IMG/VR virus record: IMGVR_UViG_3300021256_000007
Coordinates: 32,440 to 96,439 of that record
Direction: 5' to 3' (one strand)
Origin: a virus
Lineage: Duplodnaviria > Heunggongvirae > Uroviricota > Caudoviricetes
DNA length: 64,000 bases
The notes below the pieces were generated by a model. It saw nothing but the letters and a program-made list of their open reading frames with translations. It made no database searches and had not been told where the DNA came from. The number at the start of each line of letters is the position of its first letter. Position 1 is the first letter of the stretch. Of the stretch, positions 308 to 42,838 are shown piece after piece. A program made the translations under genes and the position numbers.

Positions 308-363
308 ATTCAAAATGGAAGTCAAGTATGGTAAATCTAACTTTATATTAGGAGGCTATTCGA

Positions 364-2358
364 ATGCCTAACGCAATTCCTGCTAAATACCAGGACTGCG
401 ATTTTGCTGGCTGGGCGACTCGAAACGATCTTCGTTGCTCGGATGGCCGCACAATTCGCCGCGATGCGTTTGCCCATCAGGACGGAGCTAAGGTTCCGCT
501 TGTATGGGGACACAATCACGATAGTCCTAATGCCGTCCTCGGACATGGTTTTCTTGAGAACCGTCCCGAGGGCGTTTTCTTTTACGGATATTTTAATGAC
601 AGTGAAGACGCCAAGCGTGCTAAGCAAGATGTGATGCACCGGGACGTAACTTCGCTTTCTATTTGGGCAAATCAGCTCAAGCAGAGTGGCGGAGATGTTC
701 TGCACGGTTCCATCAAGGAAGTAAGTCTTGTTCTGGCAGGAGCCAATATGGGTGCTCAGATTACTTATCCGATAATCATGCACGGCGACGATCCTGAAAC
801 TTTAATGGATGAAGCCTACATCTACATTGGCGAGGATTACGGCCTTGAGCTTGGACACGCAGATGAAGATGAGGATGGAGGAAACACTATGGATGAAGAA
901 AAGACCGTTCAGGATGTCATTGACACCATGGACGAAGACCAGCTGAAGGTCATGTCTTATCTGATTGCTAAGGCCGCTTCTGAAGGCAATGCCGATGACG
1001 AAGAGGATGAAGAGGAAATCGAGCATTCCGGCCTTGATGAAAACGCCACTGTTCAGGACGTTATCAACACTATGGATGACAATCAGATCAAGGTTATGAA
1101 CTTTCTTATTGCCAAGGCTGCGGAAGATGCTGCCGAAGAAATCAAACATTCCGATATGGAGGACAATACCATGAATTTCAACGCTTTTGATTCTAGCGCT
1201 GCTCAGGGCGGCGCCTACCTGTCTCACGACGATGAGATGTCCATTATTGCTACCGCGAAGAAGTATGGCAAGCTGAGCGATGCTCTGTCTGCTTATGCCG
1301 ATGAGAACAACCTGTCCCATGACGATCTGGCTCCTGTGAGCGGTGCCACTTCCTATCCCGATGGCCAGGATCCTGCTCAGGTCGACAGCTTCTTCCCCGA
1401 TTATCACGACGTTTATCCCGGTGCTCCTCAGCTCGTGATGAACGATCAGGCGTGGGTAAAGCAGGTTCTGAATAAGGTTCACAAGAGCCCCTTCAGCCGT
1501 ATTCGCACTAGCTACGTCGACATTCGCAACATTGAGGATCTTCGTGCCCGTGGCTATCTGAAGGGCAAGGAGAAGGTTCTGGCCGGTAATTATCCCGTTG
1601 CTCGTCGTGTCACCGATCCTCAGACCGTGTATGTTAAGTCTGCGCTGAACCATGACGATGTTGTGGACATCACTGATTTCGATTACATCGATTATCAGTA
1701 CAAGATCGATCGCATGGAGCTTGAGCTTGAGCTGGCCCGCGCGATCATGATCGGTGACGGCCGTGACGATGCCAGCGCCGACAAGATCAATCCTGAGCAC
1801 ATTCGTCCTATCTGGACCGATAATGATATTTTCACCATCCATAAGACTCTTGACCTTACCGGCGTGAATGGTGATTTCTCCGGTAACTTTGGTGACAGCT
1901 ACAAGTATGCTCAGGCCACTGAGGCTGCGATTCTCGATGCGAAGATCGACTTCAAGGGCACCGGTACTTCCGATATGTACTGCACTCAGGCTTTCTTCAA
2001 TAAGCTCATGCTTGCTAAGGATCTGAACGGTCGTCGTCTGTATGCCAATAAGGGTGAGCTTACCAGCGCTCTCGACGTTGGCGGCGTGTATAGTGTTCCC
2101 GAGTTTGCCAATAAGACCCGCACTGCCGGTGGTAAGACTTATCGTCTGCTTGCCATCATTGGTAACCTGGCTGACTATGCTCTGGGCCAGACCAAGGGCG
2201 GCGAGATCATCCATCGCACCCAGTTCGACATCGACTTCAACCAGGAGAAGAGCCTGCTTGAGACTCGCGTTTCCGGTGCTACCACTCGTCTGTACGCCTT
2301 CATTGTCATCGAGGAAGAGGTTACCGGTAACACTGGTAACGATGTTAGCGGCACCTGA
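364..2358 (+). CDS. Prohead protease (HK97/S78 family) - acidic scaffold-like repeats - major capsid protein fusion
   Basis: The N-terminus carries VPLVWGHNHD and IKEVSLVLAGAN, matching the HK97 gp4 LLWQHD and EISVVTFPAN motifs. The middle holds two tandem acidic repeats (TVQDVI(D/N)TMD(E/D)xQ(L/I)KVM(S/N)(Y/F)LIAKAA). The C-terminal ~350 aa are compatible with an HK97-fold capsid. An RBS (AGGAGG) precedes the ATG. Confidence 0.6.
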   Translation: MPNAIPAKYQDCDFAGWATRNDLRCSDGRTIRRDAFAHQDGAKVPLVWGHNHDSPNAVLGHGFLENRPEGVFFYGYFNDSEDAKRAKQDVMHRDVTSLSIWANQLKQSGGDVLHGSIKEVSLVLAGANMGAQITYPIIMHGDDPETLMDEAYIYIGEDYGLELGHADEDEDGGNTMDEEKTVQDVIDTMDEDQLKVMSYLIAKAASEGNADDEEDEEEIEHSGLDENATVQDVINTMDDNQIKVMNFLIAKAAEDAAEEIKHSDMEDNTMNFNAFDSSAAQGGAYLSHDDEMSIIATAKKYGKLSDALSAYADENNLSHDDLAPVSGATSYPDGQDPAQVDSFFPDYHDVYPGAPQLVMNDQAWVKQVLNKVHKSPFSRIRTSYVDIRNIEDLRARGYLKGKEKVLAGNYPVARRVTDPQTVYVKSALNHDDVVDITDFDYIDYQYKIDRMELELELARAIMIGDGRDDASADKINPEHIRPIWTDNDIFTIHKTLDLTGVNGDFSGNFGDSYKYAQATEAAILDAKIDFKGTGTSDMYCTQAFFNKLMLAKDLNGRRLYANKGELTSALDVGGVYSVPEFANKTRTAGGKTYRLLAIIGNLADYALGQTKGGEIIHRTQFDIDFNQEKSLLETRVSGATTRLYAFIVIEEEVTGNTGNDVSGT

Positions 2359-2398
2359 TCTAACTAAAATTTAATCAAAATGGAAGAGAAGTGAGTTA

Positions 2399-2740
2399 AT
2401 GGCACGTTATTATGGACGAATCGGTTTCCTGAAACGTGAAGAAGAATCGTCTGAGCGACCGAGTCGTTATATTCCCGTTATCGAGGAACGATTTTACTCA
2501 GGCGATACATACAAAATTCATGCAAATCAGCAAACTTCCGAAAAGCCGGTTGATGACTTTGGTATTAACAATGACATCTCCATCGTAGCGGATGCCTATG
2601 CATACAATAACTTCTCTTCCATGAAATACGTGGAGTTCATGGGTACACTTTGGGAAGTTAAGAGCGTTACCGTTGAACATCCGCGACTTCGGATTTCTTT
2701 TGGAGGTGTCTATCATGGACCAACAGGATCGACGCCTTAA
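2399..2740 (+). CDS. hypothetical head-tail connector/neck protein
   Basis: Small ORF between the capsid and major tail genes. The 13-mer variant ATCAAAATGGAAG lies 13 nt upstream. Confidence 0.35.
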   Translation: MARYYGRIGFLKREEESSERPSRYIPVIEERFYSGDTYKIHANQQTSEKPVDDFGINNDISIVADAYAYNNFSSMKYVEFMGTLWEVKSVTVEHPRLRISFGGVYHGPTGSTP

Positions 2741-3044
2741 ATTCGACGATGAACTTCGAGTTCTTCAAACAGAGATTTTAGGCTACCAGCATACGTATTT
2801 CGAGCCAACCGAAGAAGTTCGGATGAAGTACGATGCAGTGGTCTATAAGAAAACCGATATGAATGTTCGGAGAGCGAACAATAAAAGTTATTCGATACGC
2901 GATGGCTATCTTGTAACGGTTATCAGTCGTGATCCGGAAACTAAACTTCCATGGGCGATTCAGGAGCATTTTGAACGATGTGCCCCTGGTCGCCCTTTCG
3001 TTAGGGATAATCTTTACCATTTTCCCTTTACCATTTTCTATTAA
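2715..3044 (+). CDS. hypothetical neck/tail completion protein
   Basis: Internal ATG at 2715 preceded by GGAGGTG. The tracked ORF starts at 2673 without an RBS. Position is in the structural module. Confidence 0.35.
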   Translation: MDQQDRRLKFDDELRVLQTEILGYQHTYFEPTEEVRMKYDAVVYKKTDMNVRRANNKSYSIRDGYLVTVISRDPETKLPWAIQEHFERCAPGRPFVRDNLYHFPFTIFY

Positions 3045-3065
3045 TTATTAAGGAGGAAATCCCAA

Positions 3066-3764: not shown

Positions 3765-3775
3765 TTTAGTTTATC

Positions 3776-11315: not shown

Positions 11316-12380
11316 ATGCCTAATGGTTTAATTGACGATCAGGGCAATTCTATTATTGCTATTATCGTTGAAGATCCGGCAACCGGGACAGAGGAATCGG
11401 TTCCAGTTAGCGCTGATCCTAAACTGCAAAGCAAAACGGTAACGCCTACTAGGGCTGGGCAAACAGTTTCTCCGGATTCGAATTATGACGGTTTGAGTTC
11501 CGTCACATTGCAGGGCATCCCGAATGAGTATGTTATTCCTTCGGGTACCCTTGCAATCAATCAAAATGGAATCAGAAATGTTGGTCAATATGCTCAAGTT
11601 AATGTAAACGTTGGTAGCTCAAAGCCTGCCGAAGGCGAAAGCTCAAAGCAGGCTCAGGCCTATCATTCAATTACAATCGGAACAAAAAACACTTGGGACG
11701 ACTGGCATCTGGTTCCAACATCCAGACCGACTTTCGCTATGCCGAATGTAAAAACCAATTATGTGGAAATACCGGGTGGCGATGGCGTTCTCGATCTTTC
11801 TACCGTGCTAACGGGCCGTCCGACTTACGGGAATCGTCAGGGAAGTTTCGAATTTCTCGTGATGAACGACTATGGTTACTGGGCTGATCGTTACAGTGAA
11901 ATAGCAAACTATCTGCATGGTAAGACGTTTAAAGCCGTTCTCGACGATGATCCTGAGTTTTTCTACGAAGGGCGATTCTCGCTGAATGAATGGCGAAGTG
12001 AAGAACAGTGGTCTAAGATCGTAATTGATTATAATGTCGGACCTTACAAACAGTATCTGAAATCGGCCGGTGATAGATGGCTTTGGGATCCGTTCGACTT
12101 TGAAAACGGTGTTATCAATAACTATCGTAATCTTATTGTAAACGGTACTCTGAACGTCACATATGTCGGCGATGTATATGAAACGTCTCCGATCATTACA
12201 TGTTCTAAGATCGATACCGATACTGCTTTTTCTATGAGCGTTACATTTAATAGTAAAACATACAAGCTAACAGCCGGTACTAATGTGCTTGATACGGTCA
12301 CGTTTGCGGCCGGAAATAATGAGCTCACTTTTACCGGAACTGGACGAATTAATATTGAAAATACGGGAGGCCGGTTATAA
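11316..12380 (+). CDS. distal tail protein (Dit-like) with an N-terminal repeat module shared with a fibre gene
   Basis: Position directly after the tape measure. The N-terminus carries LQSKTVTPTRAGQTVSPDSNYDGLSSVTLQGI, the same repeat type found in the 18527 fibre. Confidence 0.55.
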   Translation: MPNGLIDDQGNSIIAIIVEDPATGTEESVPVSADPKLQSKTVTPTRAGQTVSPDSNYDGLSSVTLQGIPNEYVIPSGTLAINQNGIRNVGQYAQVNVNVGSSKPAEGESSKQAQAYHSITIGTKNTWDDWHLVPTSRPTFAMPNVKTNYVEIPGGDGVLDLSTVLTGRPTYGNRQGSFEFLVMNDYGYWADRYSEIANYLHGKTFKAVLDDDPEFFYEGRFSLNEWRSEEQWSKIVIDYNVGPYKQYLKSAGDRWLWDPFDFENGVINNYRNLIVNGTLNVTYVGDVYETSPIITCSKIDTDTAFSMSVTFNSKTYKLTAGTNVLDTVTFAAGNNELTFTGTGRINIENTGGRL

Positions 12381-14395
12381 TGTTTAATATTTTTGCGGAT
12401 AACCGGTTAATCTATCAGCCGGGCAACGAAAAGCTTCGGCTGATTTCTCCGAAACTTACAGTGGAAATGGGTAAAGCGGGATCTCTTGAATTTACGATCC
12501 CGCCTACTCATACATATTTTAATGACTTAACACAACTGAAAACTATTTTAACGGTCACGATGGACGACGATGAGCTCTTTCGTGGCCGTGTTTTTTCCAA
12601 TAAGCGAAATTTTAATAATACCCGTGATATTTACGGTGAAGGTAATCTTGCCTATTTGGTCGATAGTGTCCAGAAAGGTGAGAAGTATACCGGCAAAGCG
12701 CATGCTCTCTTTAAAAAGATTATCGCGGCCCATAATAAAATGGTGCAGGATAAGGAAAAGCAGTTTACAGTTGGCAGTATTACCGTAGAAGATCGAGACG
12801 TGTTTCTTGCCGGACAATCTGACGAAATTATCGACCAGGAAACCAGCAAGTTTAACTATAAGCAGATAGCTATTAACTCGATTTCCGAGGAGTGGAAGAC
12901 GAGTTTTGACTACATCGAGTCTTGTCTGCTTGATTATGCCGGTGGATATTTGAGGACCAGACGCGATGATGCAACCGGAACCAATTATATTGACTGGCTG
13001 AAAGATTATTACGCCAAATCCACACAGACGATCGAGTTTGGTAAAAATATGCTTGACCTGACGGAAGAGATCAATGCCGAAGATGTATTTACGGTTTTGA
13101 TTCCCCTTGGCGATGAGAATCTGACAATTGCATCGGTCAACAAAGGAAGCATTGAACTTTCTGATCCAGTGGCTGTTGCAAAGTACGGGCGTATTGTTAA
13201 GACCAACGTGTTCGATGCCGTTACGAATCCTCAGACGTTGCTTGAAAACGGAAAAAGATATTTGGCGAACAATTCTGAGATGCCGATCACAATTACCGTA
13301 ACGGCTGTGGATCTGCATTTGCTGAATCCAAATATTCGGGCAATTTATGTTGGCGATAAGGTTCACGTTCTCTCTCACGGTCATGACATCGATAATTCTG
13401 ATCTTGTATGCACAAAAATTGAATATGATCTTTCGAATCCTGCCAATACAGTTTATACGTTCGGAAATCCTAAGCAAACTCTTACCGAGCGATACCGTAA
13501 GGATAAGAAACAGCAAGATAAGAGTGCCGGACGAGGCGGTGGCGGTGGCGGTGCGGCTGCTGAGGAAGCCGAAGAAAAAAACGCTGGAGATATTAAAGAG
13601 ATTTTTGACGCTTATATTGATGTTAAGCCTGAGGATGGAAAAATTACGCTTAAAGCTCTTTATGAGAAGCAAGTTAAGACTGAAACCGTTTTAAAAAATA
13701 ATGTCGGAATAAATCTTGATGCACCCTCCGGAAAAATTAATATTTATGCTGATCATGACAAAGTTGAAGAATTTATCGAAAACAATAAAGAATTAAAAAA
13801 TAATATAACACGTAAATTGGGAATAGATTTAGATGCTCCTGGTGGAACGTTAAATCTATACTCAATGTACAAAGACACACAAGATAATAAAAATAATATT
13901 GCGAGCATTGAACTCTGGTCCGGAAAAGATGGAAGCAAGGTTGCTATGAAAGCGGATCTTGTGAAAATTAAAGCTAAAGTTACCGAGATTACAGGTGCAC
14001 TTACTGTTGGTAGTAGAATTACAGCTGGAAGAGAAGTCGAAGCTCCGGGATTTTATGGAACATTATTATTTAGACAAAATATAGAAGTGGCTCAGCATAC
14101 ACATTCTCTAAGCGTATCAAGTGTTGGGACAGTAACGCTTGGCACTGCAACTAAATGGGGCGACGGAGTTACATCGTCTTTTAATATAGCCGACACTAAG
14201 TTTTATAAAGACGCAGTAGCGTCGGCGGCAAAAAATGTAAAAGCGTCTGGCATTAAATTAAAAGACGGTATGATTAAGAAAGGCGCGTCAAGAGCTAAAG
14301 TAAAAGTTACATTGTCAAATGGCACGACTCAATTTTTAACGCTCAGTCTTTATTATTATCCTGAAAGTAGTGGTGGAGGTAGCAGTCCACAGTAA
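12380..14395 (+). CDS. tail-associated protein (Tal / prophage tail endopeptidase-like N-terminus)
   Basis: 671 aa immediately after Dit. Contains a Gly/Ala linker GGGGGGGAAAEEAEE and a C-terminal extension. Confidence 0.55.
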   Translation: MFNIFADNRLIYQPGNEKLRLISPKLTVEMGKAGSLEFTIPPTHTYFNDLTQLKTILTVTMDDDELFRGRVFSNKRNFNNTRDIYGEGNLAYLVDSVQKGEKYTGKAHALFKKIIAAHNKMVQDKEKQFTVGSITVEDRDVFLAGQSDEIIDQETSKFNYKQIAINSISEEWKTSFDYIESCLLDYAGGYLRTRRDDATGTNYIDWLKDYYAKSTQTIEFGKNMLDLTEEINAEDVFTVLIPLGDENLTIASVNKGSIELSDPVAVAKYGRIVKTNVFDAVTNPQTLLENGKRYLANNSEMPITITVTAVDLHLLNPNIRAIYVGDKVHVLSHGHDIDNSDLVCTKIEYDLSNPANTVYTFGNPKQTLTERYRKDKKQQDKSAGRGGGGGGAAAEEAEEKNAGDIKEIFDAYIDVKPEDGKITLKALYEKQVKTETVLKNNVGINLDAPSGKINIYADHDKVEEFIENNKELKNNITRKLGIDLDAPGGTLNLYSMYKDTQDNKNNIASIELWSGKDGSKVAMKADLVKIKAKVTEITGALTVGSRITAGREVEAPGFYGTLLFRQNIEVAQHTHSLSVSSVGTVTLGTATKWGDGVTSSFNIADTKFYKDAVASAAKNVKASGIKLKDGMIKKGASRAKVKVTLSNGTTQFLTLSLYYYPESSGGGSSPQ

Positions 14396-14408: not shown

Positions 14409-14627
14409 ATGATTACATTAAATGAGCTGACTGACGAGGTCATTCAGATTCAGCGACTTATCGATAGTCTTGAGGTTCGCGGTGGCAAGAATGCTTCTAT
14501 TCTTGCGGTTGCGTACGAGCATTGCGATTCGCTGATTCATAATCTGAAAGATGCTCTTCAAGAAATTCAAAATGAAAGTAAAAAAGTAGGTGAAGAGAAT
14601 GCCGAGATCGATACAAGACCTGCTTGA
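14409..14627 (+). CDS. hypothetical small coiled-coil protein
   Basis: 72 aa, RBS AAGGAG, overlaps the start of the next gene. Confidence 0.3.
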   Translation: MITLNELTDEVIQIQRLIDSLEVRGGKNASILAVAYEHCDSLIHNLKDALQEIQNESKKVGEENAEIDTRPA

Positions 14628-18499: not shown

Positions 18500-18526
18500 A
18501 TTCAAAATGGAAGGAGAGTGCCTTGA

Positions 18527-20207: not shown

Positions 20208-21566
20208 ATGCCCACAATACGATTAATACCAAGCATTTTCTATAACGCTGCCGGCACGTCCTATCTGACTGTCAGCAATCAGAGCAATGCATATACCAAT
20301 ACCGACAGTACAACGTACGCGACAGTAGATAATACTTACGCATCCACGACAAACCGATACGTCTATCTTCAGGGTTTTAACTTCAATGATATTCCGGCTT
20401 CTGCTGTTATAAATTCATTCAATATCAAACTTAAAGCGAATGAATCTGGCGGTTCTACGTCTTCATCTTACCGACCGGTTCTGTGTAAAGGAACGGCGAC
20501 ATACAGTAACGCTTATTGCAATGCGATTACGACAACTGTTTCGGTTCATGAGTTTTCGTTTACTCAGGACTTCGCAACGTTCCGGGATGACGGCGAGGAG
20601 TTCGGCATTCGTATTAACTGTAGACGAGGATCTAGAAATACTGAGGCTTCGTTTCATATTTACGGTGCTGAGATCGAAGTCGATTATACGATCCCGAATC
20701 CTTGCACGATTACGACAACACTGAACGGCAACGGAACAATTTCTCCAAGCGGGACAACCGAAACCGTTGAAGGCACTGAGTTCGAGCTTACGATTACACC
20801 GACCGATAAGAGTGAACAGGTCACTGTCACTAATAACGGTACTGATGTAACCAGTCAGCTTGTGGCTCATGGTACAGGAGGAAGCGGATCGTATACGGCT
20901 GACGATGTAACGACAAGCGGAATCCAGAGCGGCTCGTCTTATGCAGAGTATGCTGTAGGCCATACGGCTGAAAATCCGTCAAGTTCCGGAACTAGCAGCA
21001 ACATGTACGCATCCAGCAGCTCAACAGGCTATGCTGCGTATTCGTTTGACTTCAGTTCTATTCCGAGTAATGCGACGATCGAGGCTGTTGAAGTTCGATG
21101 CTATGGACATCGTGAATCCAGTACGATCAGCTCGACCTATGTTTCGCAGTGTGTTTTATATCAGGGTTCTACGGCGATTAGCGATGAAGTCGATTTTCCA
21201 TCTACGTCGAACAGTCTGATAACGGTAACACCGACATCCCTTCCGACAAGATCGCAACTTGATAACGTGACGCTTCGGCATTACGTCGGCTATTACGGTG
21301 GTCTTGTTCTTGGTATTACGTTCGAAGTTACTTATTCTACCGGAACCGGGATCGATCATTATACCTATACGTTCACGACGACCGGAAACACGGCAATTGT
21401 GGTTACGATCGGAAGCGTTCAGACGGATAAACTGTACTTTAAACAAAACGGCTCGTGGGTTGCCGCTACGAAAGCCTACAAAAAAGTAAACGGAGTCTGG
21501 GTCGAACAAACAGATCTGACTACGGTATTTCAAAATGGAATTAATTACGTGAAAGGAGTGGTCTAA
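20208..21566 (+). CDS. tail protein with an internal domain duplication
   Basis: 452 aa. The N-terminal ~130-aa domain recurs at residues ~250-380. A 13-mer variant lies in its 3' end. Confidence 0.45.
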   Translation: MPTIRLIPSIFYNAAGTSYLTVSNQSNAYTNTDSTTYATVDNTYASTTNRYVYLQGFNFNDIPASAVINSFNIKLKANESGGSTSSSYRPVLCKGTATYSNAYCNAITTTVSVHEFSFTQDFATFRDDGEEFGIRINCRRGSRNTEASFHIYGAEIEVDYTIPNPCTITTTLNGNGTISPSGTTETVEGTEFELTITPTDKSEQVTVTNNGTDVTSQLVAHGTGGSGSYTADDVTTSGIQSGSSYAEYAVGHTAENPSSSGTSSNMYASSSSTGYAAYSFDFSSIPSNATIEAVEVRCYGHRESSTISSTYVSQCVLYQGSTAISDEVDFPSTSNSLITVTPTSLPTRSQLDNVTLRHYVGYYGGLVLGITFEVTYSTGTGIDHYTYTFTTTGNTAIVVTIGSVQTDKLYFKQNGSWVAATKAYKKVNGVWVEQTDLTTVFQNGINYVKGVV

Positions 21567-26980: not shown

Positions 26981-27012
26981 TTCGTAAAATCTGCAATTCC
27001 TATAGTGAAGGT
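26981..27012 (+). promoter_or_regulatory. first copy of the conserved promoter-like element (TCGTAAAATCTGCAATTCCTATAGTGAAGG)
   Basis: Conforms to the consensus T-tract-TCGTA-N6-TTT(A/G)CAAC-N3-CTATAATGA(A)GG seen at 22 or more sites. Confidence 0.45.
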
Positions 27013-27043
27013 ACATTAATTTTATGAAAAGGAGGGAAACAAT

Positions 27044-27148: not shown

Positions 27149-27244
27149 TAGATGTTCTTCGGCGGAGGAGTCGTTTTATTGAAAGCGGCTTCTCTTTTTT
27201 TTGTCCTTCGCTGGAAATTCAAAATGGAAGAAGAGGTGGTAACT

Positions 27245-27844
27245 ATGAGCGATGTAATCATCAGCACAAAAGAAGGAACAGTATTTCATGAACTATTCTG
27301 TCCGTATGTTCAGCGGATCCAGAGCCGGCACAGAAAACAAGTAACTGAAGAAAAAGCAATCAAGAAGGGATATTGCGAATGTAAATTCTGTAGAAGTGTT
27401 CGCGGTATTGCTTACAAATATCGTCAGCTTTGTGAAGAGAACATTAGCTACGATGCAACCGATAACGCTATTTGTATCAAGACCGACGTAGGTTTTTGGA
27501 AACTCATATGGCGTGAAAATACGCAGGACTGGCATTTATTTCATATGAATCACAGGGGGTGGAAATGCTTTGATAAAACTTTACCGGATGAGAAATTAAT
27601 GCGCGGATCGTTTCATCGGCAGGAGGACTTTGCGCCAACCACGAACGTATCAAAGGCACTTAAGTACATTCGAAGTCATGACAAAAACTATAAGATCGCA
27701 GAGGAAGATATTCGCAAACTGAATAAGGGAAATTCCAAACAGAAGAAACACTACCAGCAGCAGAAAAACAGAAAGAAACGGGAAAGCATCCGTAATGTCT
27801 ATCGAATTTTTCATAATCTAGAAAAAGAAAAGGAGAATGCCTAA
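27245..27844 (+). CDS. Cys-rich hypothetical protein with a basic C-terminus
   Basis: CPYV...CECKFC pattern. The RBS GAGGTG sits 6 nt upstream of ATG 27245; the track start at 27152 lies in the terminator. The 13-mer is 15 nt upstream. Confidence 0.4.
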   Translation: MSDVIISTKEGTVFHELFCPYVQRIQSRHRKQVTEEKAIKKGYCECKFCRSVRGIAYKYRQLCEENISYDATDNAICIKTDVGFWKLIWRENTQDWHLFHMNHRGWKCFDKTLPDEKLMRGSFHRQEDFAPTTNVSKALKYIRSHDKNYKIAEEDIRKLNKGNSKQKKHYQQQKNRKKRESIRNVYRIFHNLEKEKENA

Positions 27845-28497: not shown

Positions 28498-28755
28498 ATG
28501 AAAGAACTGGTTGCTACTTATAAATGTAAACTTTGCGGAAAGTCTTTTGAAACAGGACGTACTGGTCCAAACGTGGCCCAGTCAATTTTAATCGCTTTTG
28601 AGATCGGAGATCCGTCACTAATGAAAAACATCATGGGCGCGAGCTATATGCATCCGACGTGCACTCATTGCTGCGCTGATGGATCATATGGATTAGCTGA
28701 ATTTCTAGGATTCAAAATGGAAGAAAATGAGGAGGATGCTGAGAATGACGGATGA
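28498..28755 (+). CDS. small zinc-ribbon protein
   Basis: CKLCGK...HPTCTHCC. The 13-mer sits inside its 3' end. Confidence 0.4.
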   Translation: MKELVATYKCKLCGKSFETGRTGPNVAQSILIAFEIGDPSLMKNIMGASYMHPTCTHCCADGSYGLAEFLGFKMEENEEDAENDG

Positions 28756-29582: not shown

Positions 29583-29879
29583 ATGAAAGTTATGCTTTCA
29601 GAAAAAGATAGAGAAGAAGAAAAACTCAGAAAACGTATGGATCGCTTTGATTCCGTCGTTCATGAATACCTCCGATCCAATAGAAAAACCGTGGAAGAAC
29701 TGTCGCTTAAAGTCGGATGCGATCCGTCGAGTCTGTGGCGCTATAGAAGGAAAGTAGAGTATTTCCAAAAGGCTCCGCTTGAAATCATAGCGTCATGCTT
29801 ACGGCTTGCTAACGTATCAAACGAAAATCTCAGATACATTCTCGGCTTACCGACGGGACGAATCACATATGAAAACTGA
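29583..29879 (+). CDS. HTH DNA-binding regulator (Cro/CI-like), putative
   Basis: 98 aa with LSLKVGCDPSSLWRYRRK as a helix-turn-helix. RBS AAAAAGGAG. Preceded by a sigma-A-type promoter. Confidence 0.5.
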   Translation: MKVMLSEKDREEEKLRKRMDRFDSVVHEYLRSNRKTVEELSLKVGCDPSSLWRYRRKVEYFQKAPLEIIASCLRLANVSNENLRYILGLPTGRITYEN

Positions 29880-30171
29880 ATATGAACTTAGTAAGCATCG
29901 CTTTTACGAACTTAAACACTTCTGTCTGCAATATTCAAAATGGAAGGAAATGTACGAAAATGCAGACGGATGGAATGGGGAGGGCGACACGACTTCTAAA
30001 GATGGGATCAAGCGTGCCGATTTGAAGACCTATATTTTCATGATCGAAGATTGCGCTCGATTAACCGGGACTGATATTCTGTGTTACGTTACGACAGAAG
30101 GCCTTAAGGTGCCGGTTGAGTTGCGCTATTCCTATAGGCAGTTTTTCTGGTTATTGAGCCAGCGCCGATAA
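29869..30171 (+). CDS. hypothetical protein (possible regulator)
   Basis: ATGA overlap with the upstream HTH gene. 100 aa. Contains a 13-mer copy internally. Confidence 0.35.
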   Translation: MKTEYELSKHRFYELKHFCLQYSKWKEMYENADGWNGEGDTTSKDGIKRADLKTYIFMIEDCARLTGTDILCYVTTEGLKVPVELRYSYRQFFWLLSQRR

Positions 30172-30448: not shown

Positions 30449-30564
30449 ATTAGAGCAACAAAGAGGGACTTTTACAAGGTCTCTCTTTTTTTTCGTAAGA
30501 AATGCAACGCCTATAATGAAGGATGATGACGCTTCGTAAATAAATAAAAAGGAGAAAAAATCAA

Positions 30565-31145: not shown

Positions 31146-31275
31146 TTTCATCACGAAAGGAGTCGTTGCACTTGCAGCGGCTTCTTTTTTTTTCAAAATG
31201 GAAGTAAACGCAAATTCTGCACCGCCTATAATGAAGGATAAGAGAACAATAACGTTTAAATAGGAGGAATTTATT

Positions 31276-31545: not shown

Positions 31546-31785
31546 GTGAAAGATTACATTATTCTCGCAGCGATCATTGTTATTTGTCTGGTTTCCGGTT
31601 TTCTTATCGGCAGATTTGGCATGAAGCGTACCTACGACGGGGATATTATCATCGAACCAACAGAAGACACCGATCGAGACGCCATTCGATTTGTACTGAA
31701 TCTGGAGCTCGATGAAATTGAAAAAAAGCAGCATCTCGTATTTAAAGTCAGAAATCATCTATCGCAAAAATCACAGCCCGTATAA
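31546..31785 (+). CDS. small membrane protein
   Basis: GTG start after GGAGGTGA. N-terminal transmembrane helix. Confidence 0.35.
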   Translation: MKDYIILAAIIVICLVSGFLIGRFGMKRTYDGDIIIEPTEDTDRDAIRFVLNLELDEIEKKQHLVFKVRNHLSQKSQPV

Positions 31786-32227: not shown

Positions 32228-32338
32228 GGAACATTCTAAAGGGGACGTTGTTTTTACAGCGTCTCTCTTTTTTCGTAAAAATGGCAGCCTTTAAGATAGG
32301 AAAGATGATTTCCAAATTCATATTTAAGGAGATTAATT

Positions 32339-32584
32339 ATGAAAAAGGCTGTTTACATGAGACTAGGTATTTTGGCTATTCTTATGCTGATCAGTGCGCT
32401 TACGGGCTTTGCAGAGCTCGGTGTGGCCACTGCTTTCGACATGAAGTTCGAAGGTATGGGCTATCTTGAGTATCTGCACGCATTCTATAGCGTTCCGTGG
32501 CATACGGCACTAGCTGGAATCGTGTTGGTTGTTGTGTTCACGGTTGCAACAGAAGTGATCTACCGTGGAATGAAGGAAAACTAA
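32339..32584 (+). CDS. small membrane protein
   Basis: 81 aa, three hydrophobic helices. RBS AAGGAG. Confidence 0.4.
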   Translation: MKKAVYMRLGILAILMLISALTGFAELGVATAFDMKFEGMGYLEYLHAFYSVPWHTALAGIVLVVVFTVATEVIYRGMKEN

Positions 32585-32625
32585 TCCTAAAAAGAGCTGT
32601 TGCACTTGCAGCGGCTCTCTTTTTT

Positions 32626-32885: not shown

Positions 32886-32940
32886 TATTTTTTACAGATG
32901 CTAATATGAGCAGATTAACATTTGAAAGGAGCAATTCAAA

Positions 32941-33315
32941 ATGGAAGAAAACAAGACTGCCGAAATTACGAAGGAGAAGAAGGATAACATTCTTGTCAGA
33001 GGTAAGAAATGGATGCAGAACAAACTGGATTCTATTGCCAAGTTTACATCTGACAATCCGCAGATGATCTTTCCGATCGTGACTGCCTTTGGATCATTGG
33101 CCTTGACAGGGCTCAGAATGATCGCTGGAGCAGGGGCGAATCAGATTGATCATTGCCGGGTTGAAGACGATGTAACCGGCGAGGAATTTATCACGAAGCA
33201 TCCTCTCACAAACGACGAGATCCTCGAACTCGGGAATCGTATGATCGACGGAGAATGGAAGGGAAGTGCCCTAAACGACATGGGGCTGCTCAAAAACGAA
33301 AAACATAGGAAGTAA
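32941..33315 (+). CDS. hypothetical protein
   Basis: The start codon is the ATG inside the 13-mer TTCAAAATGGAAG. RBS AAAGGAGC. Confidence 0.45.
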   Translation: MEENKTAEITKEKKDNILVRGKKWMQNKLDSIAKFTSDNPQMIFPIVTAFGSLALTGLRMIAGAGANQIDHCRVEDDVTGEEFITKHPLTNDEILELGNRMIDGEWKGSALNDMGLLKNEKHRK

Positions 33316-33410
33316 TTCCGAAAGGAGGCGTTGTTTTTACAGCGTCTCTCTTTTTTCGTAATTTTCGCAACCGTTATAATGAGACTATATTTAAAAGAGG
33401 AGGAATGTTA

Positions 33411-33820: not shown

Positions 33821-33871
33821 TTTCAATCAAAATGGAAGTAGTTTTTACAGCTACTTTCATTTTTTTTTGAG

Positions 33872-34117
33872 CGTGTGCAATTTCGTGTGCATTTTTATCT
33901 ATTTCGTGTGCAATTTCGGTTTCTTGCATGAAAGATATTCTGTACATACAAGTGGTCAAAAACTGCATGAAATCAAAGAAAAAGCCCCGAACCATTGCGG
34001 CTCAGGGCTTTGGAAATTGGTGGAGATGGGGGGAGTTGAACCCCTATAGAAAAGACCTTCAAATATGCATGAAATCAGGAAAGTTTACTCGTTGTGTGCA
34101 TTTTCGTGTGCAGTTTT
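33872..34117 (+). other. candidate attP region: five direct arm-type repeats (C/T)GTGTGCA(A/T/G)TTT flanking a tRNA 3'-end-like core
   Basis: Repeats at 33872, 33884, 33905, 34093 and 34105, all in the same orientation. They bracket the tRNA-like segment at 34018-34045 and abut the 3' end of the integrase gene. Confidence 0.4.
34018..34045 (-). other. tRNA 3'-end-like fragment (T-arm + acceptor 3' strand + CCA), putative attP core
   Basis: The minus strand reads AGGGGTTCAACTCCCCCCATCTCCACCA: a T-stem/loop, a 7-nt acceptor strand, a discriminator and CCA. No 5' half is present. Confidence 0.4.
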
Positions 34118-35137
34118 GGAGTCTAAAAAGAGCGACTCCATATGAGAGTCGATTAAATCTGAGAACGAATCCTCTTTTTCAATCATCGTGTGCTGGTATA
34201 CTGTCTTCAGCATATTGTCAGTTTTGTGCCCCATACGTTTCATGGCGTATTTATCAGGGACGCCAAGAGAGTGGGCTTCAGATGCTGCGAAATGTCTGAG
34301 ATCATGGAAGCGGCATTGTGTGATATTTGCCTTTTCACAAAGTCGAATAAATCCTTTGTAGATCGCAGCCTGAGTTAGGGAAACTACGTAATCTGAATCG
34401 TGTGGCTGCTGGTCAATAATGGTTTTAATCTCCTTCGGGCATTTAATCCAGCGGTCTCCGGCGAGAGATTTCGTAAGTTTTTCGGCAGGTCCGTCTTCTC
34501 CTTCGACAATTGCACGCTGAATGTGGATTCGGTCACCAATGATATCTGAAAACTTAAGGCCACGAATTTCACTCATACGAAGGCCGAGCCAAGATGCCAA
34601 AACAATCGGAAGGTAATATTTTGTTCCTTCGGCAGTTTGGTAAAGTTTCTTAAGCTCATCTTCGGTAAGAATCGAGATTTCGTGAGGTTCTTTCTGAGGA
34701 AGAGTAGTTCTCAGGACAAAATTTGGACGGTACTCCTTTAAAACTGCACTGAGAAGTCCGTGAGCATTCCTGACAGATTTGCTACTAGCACCGCGTTTAA
34801 AATCAGCATTGATAGCTTTTTGTACCTGTTCCTGCGTGAGATCCGTGATATTTTCCTTCATGAGAGGTTGAAGGTAATTCTTACGGATCTTTTTATAGCC
34901 TCGGATGGTAGCAGGAGAGAGAACACTGTCTTTTACTTCGATATACTGATCGAAAGCTTTTCCGACTGTAAGAGGTATGCGCTTTTCGAACTGAAGGCCT
35001 GCATAAAGTTCTTTCGCTTTCTGCTTGACAACTTTCGGATCAGGATCGGTTATGCTGTACCGTTTGCCGTCAACTGCGATTTGAATCCGCCAATTTCCAG
35101 ATGGTAGTTTCTTTGCCTTTGGTAGTTTCATCGGCAT
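34085..35137 (-). CDS. int: tyrosine site-specific integrase
   Basis: C-terminal R..HxLRH..A......Y motif (RFHDLRHFAASEA...LKTVYQHT). The MPMKLPKAK start has GGAGGA upstream on the minus strand. An upstream in-frame Met at 35254 is also possible. Confidence 0.8.
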   Translation of the reverse strand: MPMKLPKAKKLPSGNWRIQIAVDGKRYSITDPDPKVVKQKAKELYAGLQFEKRIPLTVGKAFDQYIEVKDSVLSPATIRGYKKIRKNYLQPLMKENITDLTQEQVQKAINADFKRGASSKSVRNAHGLLSAVLKEYRPNFVLRTTLPQKEPHEISILTEDELKKLYQTAEGTKYYLPIVLASWLGLRMSEIRGLKFSDIIGDRIHIQRAIVEGEDGPAEKLTKSLAGDRWIKCPKEIKTIIDQQPHDSDYVVSLTQAAIYKGFIRLCEKANITQCRFHDLRHFAASEAHSLGVPDKYAMKRMGHKTDNMLKTVYQHTMIEKEDSFSDLIDSHMESLFLDSKTAHENAHNE

Positions 35138-35210
35138 TCCTCCTTCAAAATGGAAGTATAACACGAAAACGTAAGATTTACAACTAATATAATGAAAGGA
35201 GATGTCAATA

Positions 35211-35444
35211 ATGGATTTTGATTGGACTGATTCGTCATCCGATGAGTTCAGCATACATTTAACAAAACAAGAAGAAGCTTGTTATGCGGCAATGTTCGAG
35301 GATCGTCCACGGTTATTCGAATATCGTGAAAACGAGTATCCTAAATATTGTGCAGATAGCAAGAAAATAATAGCGATGTATGTTGAAGAATTCGGCTTAG
35401 GGAAAGAATCTATCAACAGAATCTTTGAACATTATTTTATGTAA
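35211..35444 (+). CDS. hypothetical acidic protein
   Basis: RBS AAAGGAG. 77 aa. Confidence 0.4.
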   Translation: MDFDWTDSSSDEFSIHLTKQEEACYAAMFEDRPRLFEYRENEYPKYCADSKKIIAMYVEEFGLGKESINRIFEHYFM

Positions 35445-35472
35445 CCTGAGGCTACAACGCCTTAGGTTTTTT
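35445..35472 (+). terminator. terminator, one of three near-identical copies
   Basis: Stem CCTGAGG/CCTTAGG plus T6. The same module recurs at 35765-35792 and 37041-37064. Confidence 0.5.
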
Positions 35473-35527
35473 CGTATATTTTACAACGTCTATAATGAAG
35501 GATAAAAAATAAAGGAGGAAAATCTAA

Positions 35528-35764
35528 ATGACTAGTGTAAACGGTATGATTGTCGGTACAGCTGCCGAGATCAAGGCCGTAGAGAAGTCCATGCGTAGAG
35601 CTTGGCGAACGGATAAGTCGGCTATCTGGCCGTCGCATTCCGATGCACCTCGCTTTACCCCGTGGAAGATCTACGGAATTGCTCTCGAACCGGGCGACCG
35701 GCACACCACGTATTACGTGGTCAATGCGGACACTATCCTACGGGATATGTTGTCCTTCGCTTAG
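35528..35764 (+). CDS. hypothetical protein
   Basis: 78 aa. RBS AAGGAGG. Confidence 0.4.
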   Translation: MTSVNGMIVGTAAEIKAVEKSMRRAWRTDKSAIWPSHSDAPRFTPWKIYGIALEPGDRHTTYYVVNADTILRDMLSFA

Positions 35765-35883
35765 ACCTGGGGCTACAACGCCTTAGGTTTTTTCGTATAT
35801 TTTACAACGGCTCTTTTTTTTTCGCAAAACCTACAACCTCATAAATGAAGCAATATGCTTACATTATATTTGGAGGTAAAAAT

Positions 35884-36221: not shown

Positions 36222-36404
36222 TTTCGCATATTTTACAGCGCCTATAGTGAGAGGAGGCGAATGGTCAAGCGGAAAGCTTTATAAATCGGTTATGCAAGGC
36301 CGGGGATGAAAGGGCCCCAACGATCCGTAATAGCTCAATGGTAGAGCGCCGGGAAACCGGAGACGTGGGTTCGAAGCCCACAACTCTCACAGTTTTTATT
36401 TTTT
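36222..36404 (+). ncRNA. promoter-driven short transcript carrying a tRNA-like structure that lacks an acceptor stem and anticodon loop
   Basis: A promoter-like element at 36222-36252 and a T-tract terminator at 36391-36404 bracket it. Internal to it are a canonical D-arm (TAGCTCAATGGTAGAGC), a CCGG-GAAA-CCGG tetraloop hairpin and a T-arm (GTGGGTTCGAAGCCCAC). The 5' GTGAGAG can pair with the 3' CTCTCAC. Confidence 0.35.
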
Positions 36405-36728: not shown

Positions 36729-36784
36729 CAGCTTCCTAGTTTTTTCGTATATTTTGCAACTTCATAAATGAGGAGGCGAAAACT

Positions 36785-37495: not shown

Positions 37496-37592
37496 TTCAA
37501 AATGGAAGCTGTTGCGCTTGCAGCGGCTTCTTTTTTTTTCGTAATAATTACAGGCCCTATAATGCAAGATTTAATTTAAAGGAGGATATTTT

Positions 37593-38406: not shown

Positions 38407-38455
38407 AAGGAGCCTACAACGGCTCCGCTTTTTTCATTCAAAATGGAAGTAAATC

Positions 38456-39091: not shown

Positions 39092-39307
39092 ATGGACGAA
39101 GAAGAACGCGAATGGACAAAGAACAAGCGTAATCTCATTCTGACTATGATGCGGCAGAAGTTTGAAGAAACCGTTTATTCCTATCTCGAGAAAGGTGAAT
39201 ACAAATCTCTCGAAGAAATGGATGAATGGGTCGACAACAAGCTGCGTCAATTCGAAGATGAAAGAAGCGCGGTACGCGAATACTATAACGCGAAAATGTA
39301 TTCGTAA
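39092..39307 (+). CDS. hypothetical acidic protein
   Basis: ATG 39092 with GGAAAGGAAG upstream. The track starts at a GTG at 39083. Confidence 0.4.
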   Translation: MDEEEREWTKNKRNLILTMMRQKFEETVYSYLEKGEYKSLEEMDEWVDNKLRQFEDERSAVREYYNAKMYS

Positions 39308-39382
39308 AATTTGCAATTCCTATAGTGAGAGAGAAGCTTATATTTACGGCTTCTCTCATTTTTTGTTCAAAATGAAAGGAGA

Positions 39383-39605
39383 AATGAGCATGTTTGAAAA
39401 GATCAAAAAATTCTGTAAAGAAAACAAAACCAAACTTATTATTGGAGGTCATGTGATTGCGTGCTGTGGCGTCTGCTATTATTTATGGTGGATCGGCTAT
39501 CGAAGCGGCTGTGAAGCAGCTGCTGAGGCAAATATTCAGTACATTAAGGAAACGTATCCCGACGCATATAAATTGATCGTTACGCAGTGGCCTCAGACTA
39601 ACTGA
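39383..39605 (+). CDS. small membrane/Cys protein
   Basis: RBS inside the 13-mer variant TTCAAAATGAAAGGAG. 73 aa. Confidence 0.4.
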
Positions 39606-39960: not shown

Positions 39961-39969
39961 GGAGCTAAT

Positions 39970-40269: not shown

Positions 40270-40283
40270 TTAGGAGGAAATGC

Positions 40284-41343: not shown

Positions 41344-41976
41344 ATGGACGATATTATTGGCATTCACGAAGAAATTGACCCGGATGATCCTATTGAAAGC
41401 CTTATTCGTCAGAGTCTGGCACTGAGCGAAGAGGCGCATCGAAGAAGGCTTATCGGTTTCAGCTCCTATGAAGAACTTCAGGAAGTCAAGCGCATGGAAG
41501 CAGAGGGAGAAGAACTCTGGGCCAAGGCAAAAGAACTAGGCAGTCCATACGTTAGCAGAAAAAACTATGAGGATCTCGTGATCGCGATTTTCAAAAGTGC
41601 CGCAAGAGACTATGAGAAACTCATCTGCGGAAGCATCACCGAAACGCCTAATACGAGCAAAATCCTGATCGAAGGTCTGATTCCCAAGGAAACGGAAATC
41701 ATTCGCGATACGTATCATAAGCGATTTATTCCCTATGTTGAAAAACACGCGTATGATATTGCAAAACAGTGGGAAAAATTCGATCGACAGAAACTAGATG
41801 TTTACGATCGGGTCATTACCACGAAGTATCGCTGTCCGAATTGCCATGGATGCTTGAAACCCATGGACGGATTATCGCCCGCACACATTGGCTGTACCAA
41901 CTGTAATCTGAATTATTATATGCCCGGCAAAGTATCCGTAAAGCGGCAGACTTATACGAAGGGAGTCATACTATAA
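41344..41976 (+). CDS. hypothetical protein with a C-terminal zinc finger
   Basis: YRCPNCHGCL...CTNCNLNYY. 210 aa. Confidence 0.45.
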   Translation: MDDIIGIHEEIDPDDPIESLIRQSLALSEEAHRRRLIGFSSYEELQEVKRMEAEGEELWAKAKELGSPYVSRKNYEDLVIAIFKSAARDYEKLICGSITETPNTSKILIEGLIPKETEIIRDTYHKRFIPYVEKHAYDIAKQWEKFDRQKLDVYDRVITTKYRCPNCHGCLKPMDGLSPAHIGCTNCNLNYYMPGKVSVKRQTYTKGVIL

Positions 41977-41978
41977 GA

Positions 41979-42173
41979 ATGAACACATTCGTAATTAAGA
42001 CAGTAGACGGCAGTTTATATTTGATTGACGGAGAAAGTGTCAAAGAAATCTTCAGCAAGATCGATGGGCTTCGCCTGATGGGAAAGCGCTGGCTGGAAAC
42101 TTATATTATCGCTGATCTCGGCGAGGCACAGCCAGTATACGTTAATATCGATCAGATCGTAAGTATTCAATAA
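41979..42173 (+). CDS. hypothetical small protein
   Basis: 64 aa. Confidence 0.4.
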   Translation: MNTFVIKTVDGSLYLIDGESVKEIFSKIDGLRLMGKRWLETYIIADLGEAQPVYVNIDQIVSIQ

Positions 42174-42231
42174 TATGTTCGACATTTTAAATGCGAATGA
42201 AATTTATTATTTAAAAAAGGAGAAATTACAA

Positions 42232-42459
42232 ATGTTCAATCTCGTATCCATGAACGCCATCCGCACGGACTTCGATGCCGCGATGGAAAAGCAGGGCTAT
42301 CTCAGGGCCACTGTTATGTATAAAAACTGGGGAATCACCGCGAAGAAGTTTGGCTCTCTTGTGAAGAAAGGCTACGATTGCGATTCCTTTATCGTGAACG
42401 GTGTGCGTTATATTCATAAGGACGCTCCCAATCCGCTCGACGGTCCCATGGAGGTTTAA
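42232..42459 (+). CDS. hypothetical protein
   Basis: ATG after AAGGAGAAATTACAA. 75 aa. Confidence 0.4.
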   Translation: MFNLVSMNAIRTDFDAAMEKQGYLRATVMYKNWGITAKKFGSLVKKGYDCDSFIVNGVRYIHKDAPNPLDGPMEV

Positions 42460-42461
42460 TC

Positions 42462-42620
42462 ATGGTAAGCGACAGCGAAGTCAAGGAAGTAAAGTTCGCA
42501 AAATATTGTCAAACCTGCAAAAACTGGGCCGATGGCAAAGAAATTCCAGTATGCGATGACTGCCTGGAAGAGAGCATGCGATATGGCACGGAGGTACCTC
42601 TGAAGTGGGAGAAGAAATAA
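42462..42620 (+). CDS. mini zinc-ribbon protein (52 aa)
   Basis: CQTCKN...CDDCLEE. RBS GGAGG. Confidence 0.35.
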   Translation: MVSDSEVKEVKFAKYCQTCKNWADGKEIPVCDDCLEESMRYGTEVPLKWEKK

Positions 42621-42838
42621 AGGTTGCTTATCTCTGTGACGGTTTATGCTCATGTTCAGACAGCATCATGTGTTTTCGGCGCGGAGTTCCGGGAGCGGAC
42701 TGCAAGCATACGTTTGATCCCGATCACGCGGCCAATAAGCGTGTAGGACATCCTGAAAACTATCCGGATCGCTTTCATTTAATTCAAAATGGAATCGAAG
42801 AACCTTGCTGGTGGGAAGGAGACATAGATATTCCATGA
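42605..42838 (+). CDS. Cys-rich small protein
   Basis: CDGLCSCSDSIMC. Contains a 13-mer variant in its 3' part. Confidence 0.35.
   Translation: MGEEIKVAYLCDGLCSCSDSIMCFRRGVPGADCKHTFDPDHAANKRVGHPENYPDRFHLIQNGIEEPCWWEGDIDIP

Follow-up and report, generated by a model that had tools for sequence, protein, structure and literature searches.

What does a short DNA word do when it recurs on a single strand of a phage genome, ahead of genes, between them and inside them? The question is raised by a 64,000-nucleotide stretch of viral DNA (the window; positions 32,440 to 96,439 of the IMG/VR record IMGVR_UViG_3300021256_000007), which comes from a gut Clostridia siphovirus of about 96 kb and carries the 13-nucleotide (nt) motif TTCAAAATGGAAG repeatedly on its + strand. 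This signal marks the late (virion and lysis) genes and, in the clade of the window phage, many accessory cassettes. We propose that it is the late promoter, or initiation signal, of a phage-encoded single-chain RNA polymerase of the YonO/RdRP-like type, a reading to which we give an even chance.

The motif in the window and in related phages

The window holds ten exact copies of TTCAAAATGGAAG (Table 1), rather than the twelve counted in an earlier note on this DNA, and no exact copy is expected by chance, as judged from 100 dinucleotide shuffles, in keeping with that note's view that the repetition lies far above chance. Six copies with one mismatch and a single copy with two bring the total at up to two mismatches to 17, all of them on the + strand as the note had stated, and the sole match on the − strand (44070) is at the chance level. 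The site list of the note was mostly correct, except that 39365 should read 39366 and that 14566 had been overlooked, and its description of the contexts was borne out on re-inspection (upstream of the starts at 364, 2399, 18527, 21570, 27245, 28745 and 38456; over the start codon at 32941; between terminator and promoter; after stop codons; inside genes; and beside the integrase gene). Positions 2–9 of the motif (TCAAAATG) and positions 11–12 (AA) are invariant in 17/17 sites, the extended consensus is A-TTCAAAATGGAAG-n-A-R-A, and the flanks of the 17 sites have nothing further in common. Rfam gave no match at these sites, the window yielding tRNA matches only, and a literature search by the motif sequence returned only unrelated primers, no account of the motif being found in the searchable literature.

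The copies are confined to one region. The motif is absent from the 1.8 kb upstream of the window, and it is also absent from positions 43–64 kb and from the following 10 kb of the contig (43–74 kb together, about 90 genes), i.e., from about 30 kb of replication and early genes that are encoded on the + strand like the region with the motif. Similarly, the replication regions of the window phage and of a clade relative show the motif either not at all or without strand bias.

The window phage belongs to the supercluster of phages with a fused capsid-protease gene (described in bioRxiv 10.1101/842583), together with Lactococcus phage 1706 and the lytic actinophages Rima, Mudcat, Kenosha and Count. 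Around the capsid gene of its relatives (98 loci), we counted 271 distinct contexts of TCAAAATGG on the strand of the capsid gene and 0 on the opposite strand, and the corresponding numbers for TCAAAATG are 400 and 5, so that the strand bias holds in the relatives, where the earlier note had suggested looking for it. The same is true of the counts of TCAAAATG in complete or near-complete genomes of relatives, given here as + versus −: 8 versus 0 in Rima (GC content 0.60; 0.4 expected), 5 versus 0 in Mudcat (0.45), which has in addition four TTCAAAATAGGAGTA, 4 versus 0 in Kenosha (0.52), 7 versus 0 in Count (0.53) and 8 versus 0 in 1706 (0.33). From these sequence comparisons, TTCAAAATGGAAG appears as one phage's version of an older one-strand signal that spans the supercluster, with the core TCAAAAT(G), or more fully (T/A/G)TCAAAAT(G/A), and a purine-rich tail after it, of a single form in each genome. 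As a separate observation, the + strand of Rima has 11 copies of the shorter word TCAAAA and the − strand none, about 5 being expected per strand, which hints at avoidance of the reverse orientation.

The late-gene sites are syntenic in six genomes of phages that infect Actinobacteria and Firmicutes, individual sites being missing from some. They lie ahead of the gene of a "virion structural protein"; within TerL, at the peptide G-D-T-I-K-M-E; at the start of the capsid gene; just past the capsid stop codon; in a tail gene, at S-x-S-K-W-E; and in the gene preceding the tape measure, at (I/V)-Q-N-G; one further copy stands just past the first terminators of the early region. The 3' half of the motif, uniform in each genome, differs between genomes, being GGAAG in the window, GAAAGTA in the clade relative L228, which carries TTCAAAATGAAAGTA throughout, and AGGAGTA in Mudcat, which carries TTCAAAAT(A/G)GGAGTA. 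Such a change in concert within a genome is as expected of a promoter and its polymerase.

The sites inside genes show at which level this conservation acts. At G-D-T-I-K-M-E, the isoleucine is encoded by ATC in 49 of 53 variants and the lysine by AAA in 48 of 53; by contrast, the codons used for the neighbouring Gly, Asp, Thr, Glu and Leu are variable. At S-x-S-K-W-E, the serine of the motif is TCA in 40 of 45 cases, while the serine two residues earlier is spread over six codons (TCC 15, TCT 14, TCA 10). The peptide (I/V)-Q-N-G is written ATT/GTT CAA AAT GGA in 19/19, and the S-K-W site of Rima reads TCA AAA, though TCA accounts for 7% of the Ser codons in this phage and AAA for 5% of the Lys codons. 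Since synonymous positions are nearly fixed while the neighbouring codons vary, selection is on the nucleotide word, in three reading frames, which upholds the previous suggestion of a strand-polar signal at the level of the nucleic acid rather than a protein motif. The in-gene copies at 21529, 28711, 29934 and 42783, and those of relatives, always encode S-K-W, (I/F/V)-Q-N-G or (I/F)-K-M-E.

Placement of the sites and the candidate polymerase

Thirteen of the 17 window sites lie 0–71 nt ahead of a start codon, against about 15% expected (binomial p ~3e-8). These start-proximal sites are either intergenic or in the last 25–45 nt of the preceding gene (in the frames F-Q-N-G, F-K-M-E and I-Q-N-G), and the distance from motif to start ranges from −7 to +71 nt over the window sites. 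Four sites lie just past intrinsic terminators, and three of these (27218, 38437 and 39366) have no other promoter before the gene. The 27–40 kb region is made of cassettes, each with an intrinsic terminator, a TATAAT-type element (TTTTTTCGTAnnnnT-CAAC-nn-CTATAATGAAGGAT), a ribosome-binding site and a small gene. The slot after the terminator is occupied by the TATAAT-type (early-type) element or by the motif, which replaces the element at 27218, 38437 and 39366, and this motif-only arrangement is kept in L225, L226, L228 and Mudcat (27433). Elsewhere, the motif stands between the terminator and the TATAAT element (31192) or ahead of the terminator (33826 and 37496), and four clade relatives of the window phage (84–96 kb) keep these motif/terminator arrangements although their flanks diverge. 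At 35144 and 31192, little + strand RNA, if any, should be made (at 35144, we found no upstream + strand gene or promoter able to transcribe the stretch), which points to an action at the DNA level.

For a signal that has persisted in phages whose hosts belong to two phyla, one would expect the reader to be a conserved phage protein. The proposed signature gene of the supercluster encodes a protein of about 930 amino acids (aa), annotated as a helix-turn-helix (HTH) protein, which HHpred relates to RdRP/YonO/crAss-type polymerases and which has a DxDGD loop (bioRxiv 10.1101/842583). We confirmed this polymerase family in Rima (gp86), 1706 (orf75), many gut relatives and the locus L232, which lies on the same contig as the clade relative L227 and whose protein is 43% identical to Rima gp86 over its full length, with GADYDGDTV. 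The family has the DYDGD loop, and in the 4/4 polymerases tested, HTH/Sigma70_r4 hits were found at both the N- and the C-terminal ends, together with sub-threshold PF05183 matches over the catalytic region. The polymerases of gut relatives are 49% identical to that of Rima, and the overall range between Rima and gut phages, 43–49%, is above the 36–37% identity of the capsid proteins of the window phage and the actinophages. The core of the motif is present in both complete polymerase-carrying genomes read (Rima and 1706) and in the polymerase-carrying gut relatives; the stretches of Mudcat, Kenosha and Count, which extend to 50 kb, end short of the position of the polymerase gene. The motif is conserved to the same depth as the RNA polymerase that these phages encode, in contrast to immunity specificities, which diverge fast. 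From synteny with L232, the polymerase gene of the window phage is predicted at about 79.8–82.6 kb in window coordinates.

In the mechanism that we propose, the TATAAT-type "early" cassettes would be read by the host RNA polymerase, and the phage polymerase, encoded at the far end of the replication module, would then initiate at the motif, yielding transcripts with 5' ends inside the motif or at its 3' edge. Such starts (T7-type or mitochondrial-like) are suggested because the core is directly adjoined by ribosome-binding sites in Mudcat, in Rima, in 1706 and at several sites of the window, the only bases at 38437 that resemble a Shine-Dalgarno (SD) sequence being the GGAAG of the motif. Where the ATG of the motif is the start codon, the transcripts would be leaderless, and the ribosome-binding site upstream would serve the read-through RNA. 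The phage polymerase may also pass through hairpin terminators, and such an insensitivity would explain the indifferent order of motif and terminator. The flap and other elements that take part in hairpin termination are missing from enzymes of the YonO class (PMC5467207, discussion), and their absence could explain the motifs ahead of terminators. We advance more tentatively, at somewhat short of an even chance, the wider proposal that this motif provides the two-barrel YonO/RdRP-like class with its first promoter consensus, namely an ancient initiator-type signal of 8–15 nt, read via fused sigma-4-like HTH domains, standing at the same late positions, in-gene ones included, in phages of two phyla and used by a polymerase indifferent to hairpin terminators. 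Among the suggestions of the earlier note, a late-transcription signal comes closest to the promoter reading.

Several points weigh against the promoter reading. The promoter activity of the motif is something that we infer, as are its recognition by the polymerase, the transcript start points and the insensitivity to terminators. The polymerase gene was not seen on the contig of the window, read up to about 74 kb in window coordinates, and the promoter region of SPbeta YonO is devoid of TCAAAAT. The distant relatives mostly have the motif over the start codon with the ribosome-binding site upstream, so that initiation at the motif would give a leaderless transcript or one that lacks the gene, and the sites 33826 and 37496 point directly into a terminator. 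About five cassette genes past a terminator have neither the motif nor a TATAAT element, which indicates that read-through occurs and that the need for a promoter is not strict. Furthermore, the promoter of the phage polymerase could be the TATAAT-type element instead, which is about 30 nt long, is kept across phyla and has a T7-like part from −5 to +6. This element stands right after terminators with the consensus tCGCatAttTTACAnnnnCTATA(A/G)TGA(G/A), is conserved from the Streptomyces phage Rima via Mudcat, Kenosha and 1706 to the window phage, has no −35 element at proper spacing, and resembles in its −5 to +6 part (CTATAGTGAGA) the promoters of the T7 group (CTATAGGGAGA).

Genes starting about 15–30 nt past the T-run of a terminator without any promoter-like element were seen at 31546 in the window and at 14114, 16788 and 20114 in L225, L227 and L228, respectively, and such starts suggest that the hairpins leak or that some polymerase ignores them. 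By eye, most of the cases that our overly strict regular expression for the early-type promoter scored as "none" are early-type promoters. Near-identical terminator hairpins form three families (Table 1), which suggests that whole regulatory cassettes were duplicated or shuffled.

Table 1. Sites of the motif and other features of the window, with counterparts in relatives (position in the relative in brackets)
Feature	Coordinates	Strand	Sequence	Context	Counterparts
Motif	309–321	+	exact	1 nt past portal stop (307), 42 nt ahead of capsid-protease start 364	Same position in L001–L004; overlaps capsid start codon in L010, Rima, Mudcat, Kenosha, Count
Motif	2374–2386	+	ATCAAAATGGAAG, 1 mismatch	15 nt past capsid stop (2358), 12 nt ahead of start 2399	Most relatives read: 1706 (9035), Rima (10777), Mudcat (10025), Count (13354); no copy at this junction in Kenosha
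Motif	11560–11572	+	ATCAAAATGGAAT, 2 mismatches, weakest	Within Dit-like gene 11316–12380, Q-N-G frame; could be a chance match (3.8 two-mismatch matches expected over both strands)	
Motif	14566–14578	+	TTCAAAATGAAAG(TA), 1 mismatch	3' end of open reading frame (ORF) 14409–14627, 20 nt ahead of ATG 14599 (871-aa tail gene)	Similar sites in L226 (468), L227 (4699)
Motif	18501–18513	+	exact	1 nt past stop 18499, 13 nt ahead of start 18527	Similar sites in L226 (4011, 7410)
Motif	21529–21541	+	TTCAAAATGGAAT, 1 mismatch	3' end of gene 20208–21566, F-Q-N-G frame, 28 nt ahead of start 21570	L225 (2439)
Motif	27218–27230	+	exact	About 15 nt past intrinsic terminator 27164–27203, 14 nt ahead of ATG 27245; no TATAAT-type promoter between terminator and gene	Terminator, motif, SD, gene in this order, flanks different: L225 (9974), L226 (9971), L228 (9971)
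Motif	28711–28723	+	exact	3' end of gene 28498–28755, F-K-M-E frame, 21 nt ahead of ATG 28745	L225 (11466)
Motif	29934–29946	+	exact	Within gene 29869–30171, Y-S-K-W-K frame	L225 (12723)
Motif	31192–31204	+	exact	Abuts T-run of terminator 31155–31191; 22 nt ahead of TATAAT of early-type promoter for gene 31276	Terminator, motif, early-type promoter in this order: L225 (13763), Rima (27321)
Motif	32935–32947	+	exact	Motif ATG (32941) is start codon of 124-aa gene; SD AAAGGAG upstream	SD, then motif containing start codon: commonest register in distant relatives
Motif	33826–33838	+	ATCAAAATGGAAG, 1 mismatch	5 nt past stop 33820; its 3' ten bases are the 5' arm of terminator hairpin 33829–33863	Motif in terminator 5' arm: L225 (17120)
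Motif	35144–35156	+	exact	Divergent region, 12 nt from integrase start 35131 (−), facing + gene 35211; 31 nt ahead of TATAAT of early-type promoter	L225 (18433), L226 (15695)
Motif	37496–37508	+	exact	Directly past stop 37495; GGAAG is base of terminator 37504–37531, then early-type promoter and gene 37593	Stop, motif, terminator, early-type promoter in this order: L225 (14797)
Motif	38437–38449	+	exact	2 nt past T-run of terminator (38409–38434), 6 nt ahead of ATG 38456; no other promoter; only SD-like bases are the motif's own GGAAG	Ahead of same MKYYYEKP gene: L226 (17709), L228 (17117)
Motif	39366–39378	+	TTCAAAATGAAAG(GAG), 1 mismatch	1 nt past T-run of terminator, 5 nt ahead of ATG 39384; early-type promoter upstream of this terminator	Same TCAAAATGAAAGGAG site: L226 (18134), L228 (17561)
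Motif	42783–42795	+	TTCAAAATGGAAT, 1 mismatch	3' end of ORF ending at 42838, I-Q-N-G frame, 39 nt ahead of ATG 42835	
TATAAT-type elements	26981–27014, 30489–30524, 31205–31239, 33350–33386, 35469–35503, 36738–36776, 37531–37570, others			Right after terminators	L222 (Rima), L223, L224, L102
Terminator family	31155–31188, 32593–32618, 37504–37531			Near-identical hairpins	
Terminator family	32241–32266, 33324–33349			Near-identical hairpins	
Terminator family	35443–35468, 35763–35790			Near-identical hairpins	
Attenuator/switch-like layout	~39300–39384		CCTATAGTGAGAGAG (early-type promoter)	Promoter leads into terminator hairpin made of its first transcribed bases; motif variant and gene 39384 follow	Kept in L226, L228
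Capsid-protease gene	364–2358	+		Fused gene	
Tyrosine integrase gene	34085–35131	−			
tRNA-like piece	36331–36381	+		Partial Rfam tRNA match, 34.8 bits, model positions 8–63, 1.2 kb from integrase gene	
HTH gene	43055–43357	+		Xre-type	
tRNA-Leu (TAA)	50764–50848				
tRNA-Gln (TTG)	51018–51093				
tRNA-Met (CAT)	52455–52531				

The window represents about two thirds of the 96,367-bp metagenomic contig ENA ERZ12302812 NODE_383, its position 1 being base 1836 of the reversed contig. Downstream of the capsid-protease gene, the tail genes, including that of a 2018-aa tape measure, extend to about 27 kb, and gene 27245 is the first of a putative lysis operon, with a weak, below-threshold match to cell-wall hydrolases at 27844. 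Nucleotide-metabolism and other small genes occupy 43–64 kb, and the 10 kb of contig past the window hold further small genes and a 1425-aa replicase. Apart from that of the integrase, all genes are on the + strand. The phage collection contained no near-identical genome and no close relative of this phage, and IMG/VR no relative of its lysis gene; at the protein level, the relatives are gut Clostridia phages and prophages, Lactococcus phage 1706 and the actinophage clusters BI, AU, AM, DJ, CC and EL. The tRNA-like piece near the integrase gene was not called by ARAGORN and may be an attP-type tRNA fragment. The ATG of the motif often opens a tiny M-E-V ORF of 3 to about 20 codons (309, 31192, 33826, 35144 and 38437; L001–L004, L109, L123 and L150), which at the capsid gene of the window and of L001 ends 4 nt after the true start codon; these mini-ORFs are probably incidental.

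Alternative explanations

The signal could operate on the RNA by translation starts, either as an endoribonuclease site at which the late transcript is cut, for example to give a stable capsid mRNA, or as a translational operator or enhancer comparable to the targets of T4 RegA/RegB or to the start-associated sequences of actinophages. Such a role agrees with the location of the motif, always on the sense strand, directly 5' of the ribosome-binding site or in the spacer to the ATG and, in most relatives, on both sides of the capsid gene, as well as with the TTCAAAAT-AGGAGTA of Mudcat, which precedes the start codon by 11 nt at three sites and by 13 nt at a fourth. The start-associated sequences (SAS/ESAS) of Cluster K mycobacteriophages and Cluster EF Microbacterium phages are likewise 13-bp oriented motifs by some start codons (PMC3203893, PMC7302621), and the Mudcat sequence even takes in the ribosome-binding site. 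However, SAS occupy the ribosome-binding position at a fixed 3–8 bp from the start and pair with the 16S rRNA, whereas the core described here is AT-rich and outside the ribosome-binding site, its distance to the start is variable (−7 to +71 nt in the window, and fixed only at the Mudcat-type sites), and it also occurs by terminators and deep in genes, the sites within TerL, the S-K-W-E gene and the tape measure being well kept. Moreover, several sites follow strong terminators or lie in the divergent region beside the integrase gene, where + RNA is presumably scarce, the ATG is not required since some Mudcat sites have ATA, and no conserved nuclease or RNA-binding candidate was found. We consider an action on the RNA unlikely, and the mRNA translational operator listed earlier as an alternative is weakened. 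The earlier note regarded the L5-type stoperators as the closest precedent. In this reading, a DNA-binding protein on the motif would block or modulate transcription depending on orientation, and in a variant of it the protein would be a timing repressor of the lytic cycle. The resemblance is real in form: Cluster A stoperators are asymmetric 13-bp sites that keep a single orientation with respect to transcription and often touch a start or stop codon, and here 17/17 copies, frequently at gene boundaries, share the + strand with every gene except one; the window clade is temperate, as shown by its tyrosine integrase, and three of its members have a copy in the divergent integrase/early-promoter region, that at 35144, 31 nt ahead of an early-type promoter, being compatible with an operator but not diagnostic of it. 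Yet stoperators, which come in tens of copies, serve the immunity repressor of temperate phages in early and late regions alike, whereas the same core occupies the same gene positions in lytic phages (cluster EL is lytic and has no reported repressor or integrase, PMC7302621; 1706 is called virulent in the literature, and its orf50 is annotated as a "putative repressor"), and it is absent from the 30 kb of early and replication genes. We saw no repressor or integrase annotation in the full genome of Rima or in the stretches to 50 kb of Mudcat, Kenosha and Count. Furthermore, a roadblock after a strong terminator would be redundant, and immunity specificities diverge fast while this core is common to two host phyla and kept as deeply as the polymerase. 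Among the four HTH candidates proposed previously (29583, 30565, 43055 and 63110), only 43055–43357, whose protein is not known to be conserved, has an HTH match, and Pfam and PHROGs searches of about 30 window proteins found no sigma factor, nuclease or regulator other than this Xre-type HTH. The stoperator analogy thus finds no support, and we consider it improbable.

An elongation signal for the phage or host RNA polymerase, acting in pausing, re-loading or antitermination along the 25-kb late operon in the manner of ops/RfaH or put, would suit the polarity of a non-template strand and the spacing of about 2–5 kb along late operons, long genes included, and at 33826 and 37496, where the motif overlaps the 5' arm of the terminator, binding would undo the hairpin. 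It has nonetheless a slim probability in our view, because most terminators of the region have no motif in or ahead of them, four motifs lie just past terminators, the late operons of relatives keep the motif with few terminators, and the preference for the 0–71 nt ahead of start codons is not predicted by it. Even less probable, to the point of being very doubtful, is a replication or DNA-structure signal, such as lagging-strand priming sites of the four-in-one replicase or single-strand nicks as in T5 and phiKMV, which would go with the single-strand polarity and the kilobase spacing. The replicase GP55 of 1706, of which the window phage has a homologue, is indeed a sequence-specific primase, but its mapped site is 5'-CCAAC-3', with loose specificity, and not TCAAAAT (PMC12205980); in addition, the motif keeps to the late half, with no copy in about 30 kb of the same strand, and neither priming nor nicking predicts its placement just ahead of start codons.

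We also rejected several simpler assignments. A host sigma-70 promoter (−35/−10) would need a conserved partner element, which is missing, and a −10-like element (CAAAAT plus discriminator; compare the TATAAT-GAAGGAT of the cassettes) clashes with the ribosome-binding sites that abut the core. A role as start codon or upstream ORF does not fit with ORFs of arbitrary length from the motif ATG and with the ATA of Mudcat. No complementarity to the 3' end of the 16S rRNA was seen by eye. Finally, as a Chi-like site the motif is too long, follows the phage lineage rather than the host and occurs in one region only.

Relation to known systems and significance

The motif works most like a phage-polymerase-specific late promoter. 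As in T7 (class III promoters) and SPbeta (YonO), a short oriented motif is repeated ahead of late genes in phages that encode their own single-chain RNA polymerase: here, it precedes one temporal class of genes, namely late genes and cassettes, it is kept as far as the polymerase, which was found in relatives of the window phage, one of its own clade included, and it varies in concert within genomes. The polymerase differs from that of T7 in being of the two-barrel YonO/RdRP-like class with fused HTH domains, and the conserved core is only 8–15 nt long; SPbeta, for its part, has a single late start site and lacks TCAAAAT. To our knowledge, no promoter is known for any member of this class. 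The T4 late promoters (TATAAATA), read by gp55, are also short, strand-specific late motifs without −35 element, found in a very wide phage group and with some in-gene copies. However, a start 6–7 nt downstream would here leave transcripts without the ribosome-binding sites that directly border TCAAAAT in Mudcat, in Rima, in 1706 and at several sites of the window, and no gp55-like factor was found. T4-type phages also possess PeSL cassettes, in which promoter-early stem-loops flank small ORFs, and the 27–40 kb region of the window likewise consists of repeated units of terminator, promoter and small gene with near-identical terminator families. This likeness fits the TATAAT-type cassettes, whereas the 13-mer is a second element, found in their place or together with them.

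YonO, which is distantly related to the enzymes considered here, transcribes the late structural and lysis genes of SPbeta from a promoter that was not determined (PMC5467207). The same paper explicitly leaves open how polymerases of the YonO class recognise their promoters, and we found no later answer in the searchable literature. The motif offers a concrete candidate sequence, present in culturable, well-annotated phages (Lactococcus phage 1706 and the SEA-PHAGES clusters BI, AU, DJ and EL) as well as in very abundant gut Clostridia phages. It is also an unusually clean case of a regulatory DNA word held in place by synonymous codon choice in phages of two bacterial phyla, and it may serve as a sequence marker for the late genes in thousands of unannotated gut phage contigs.

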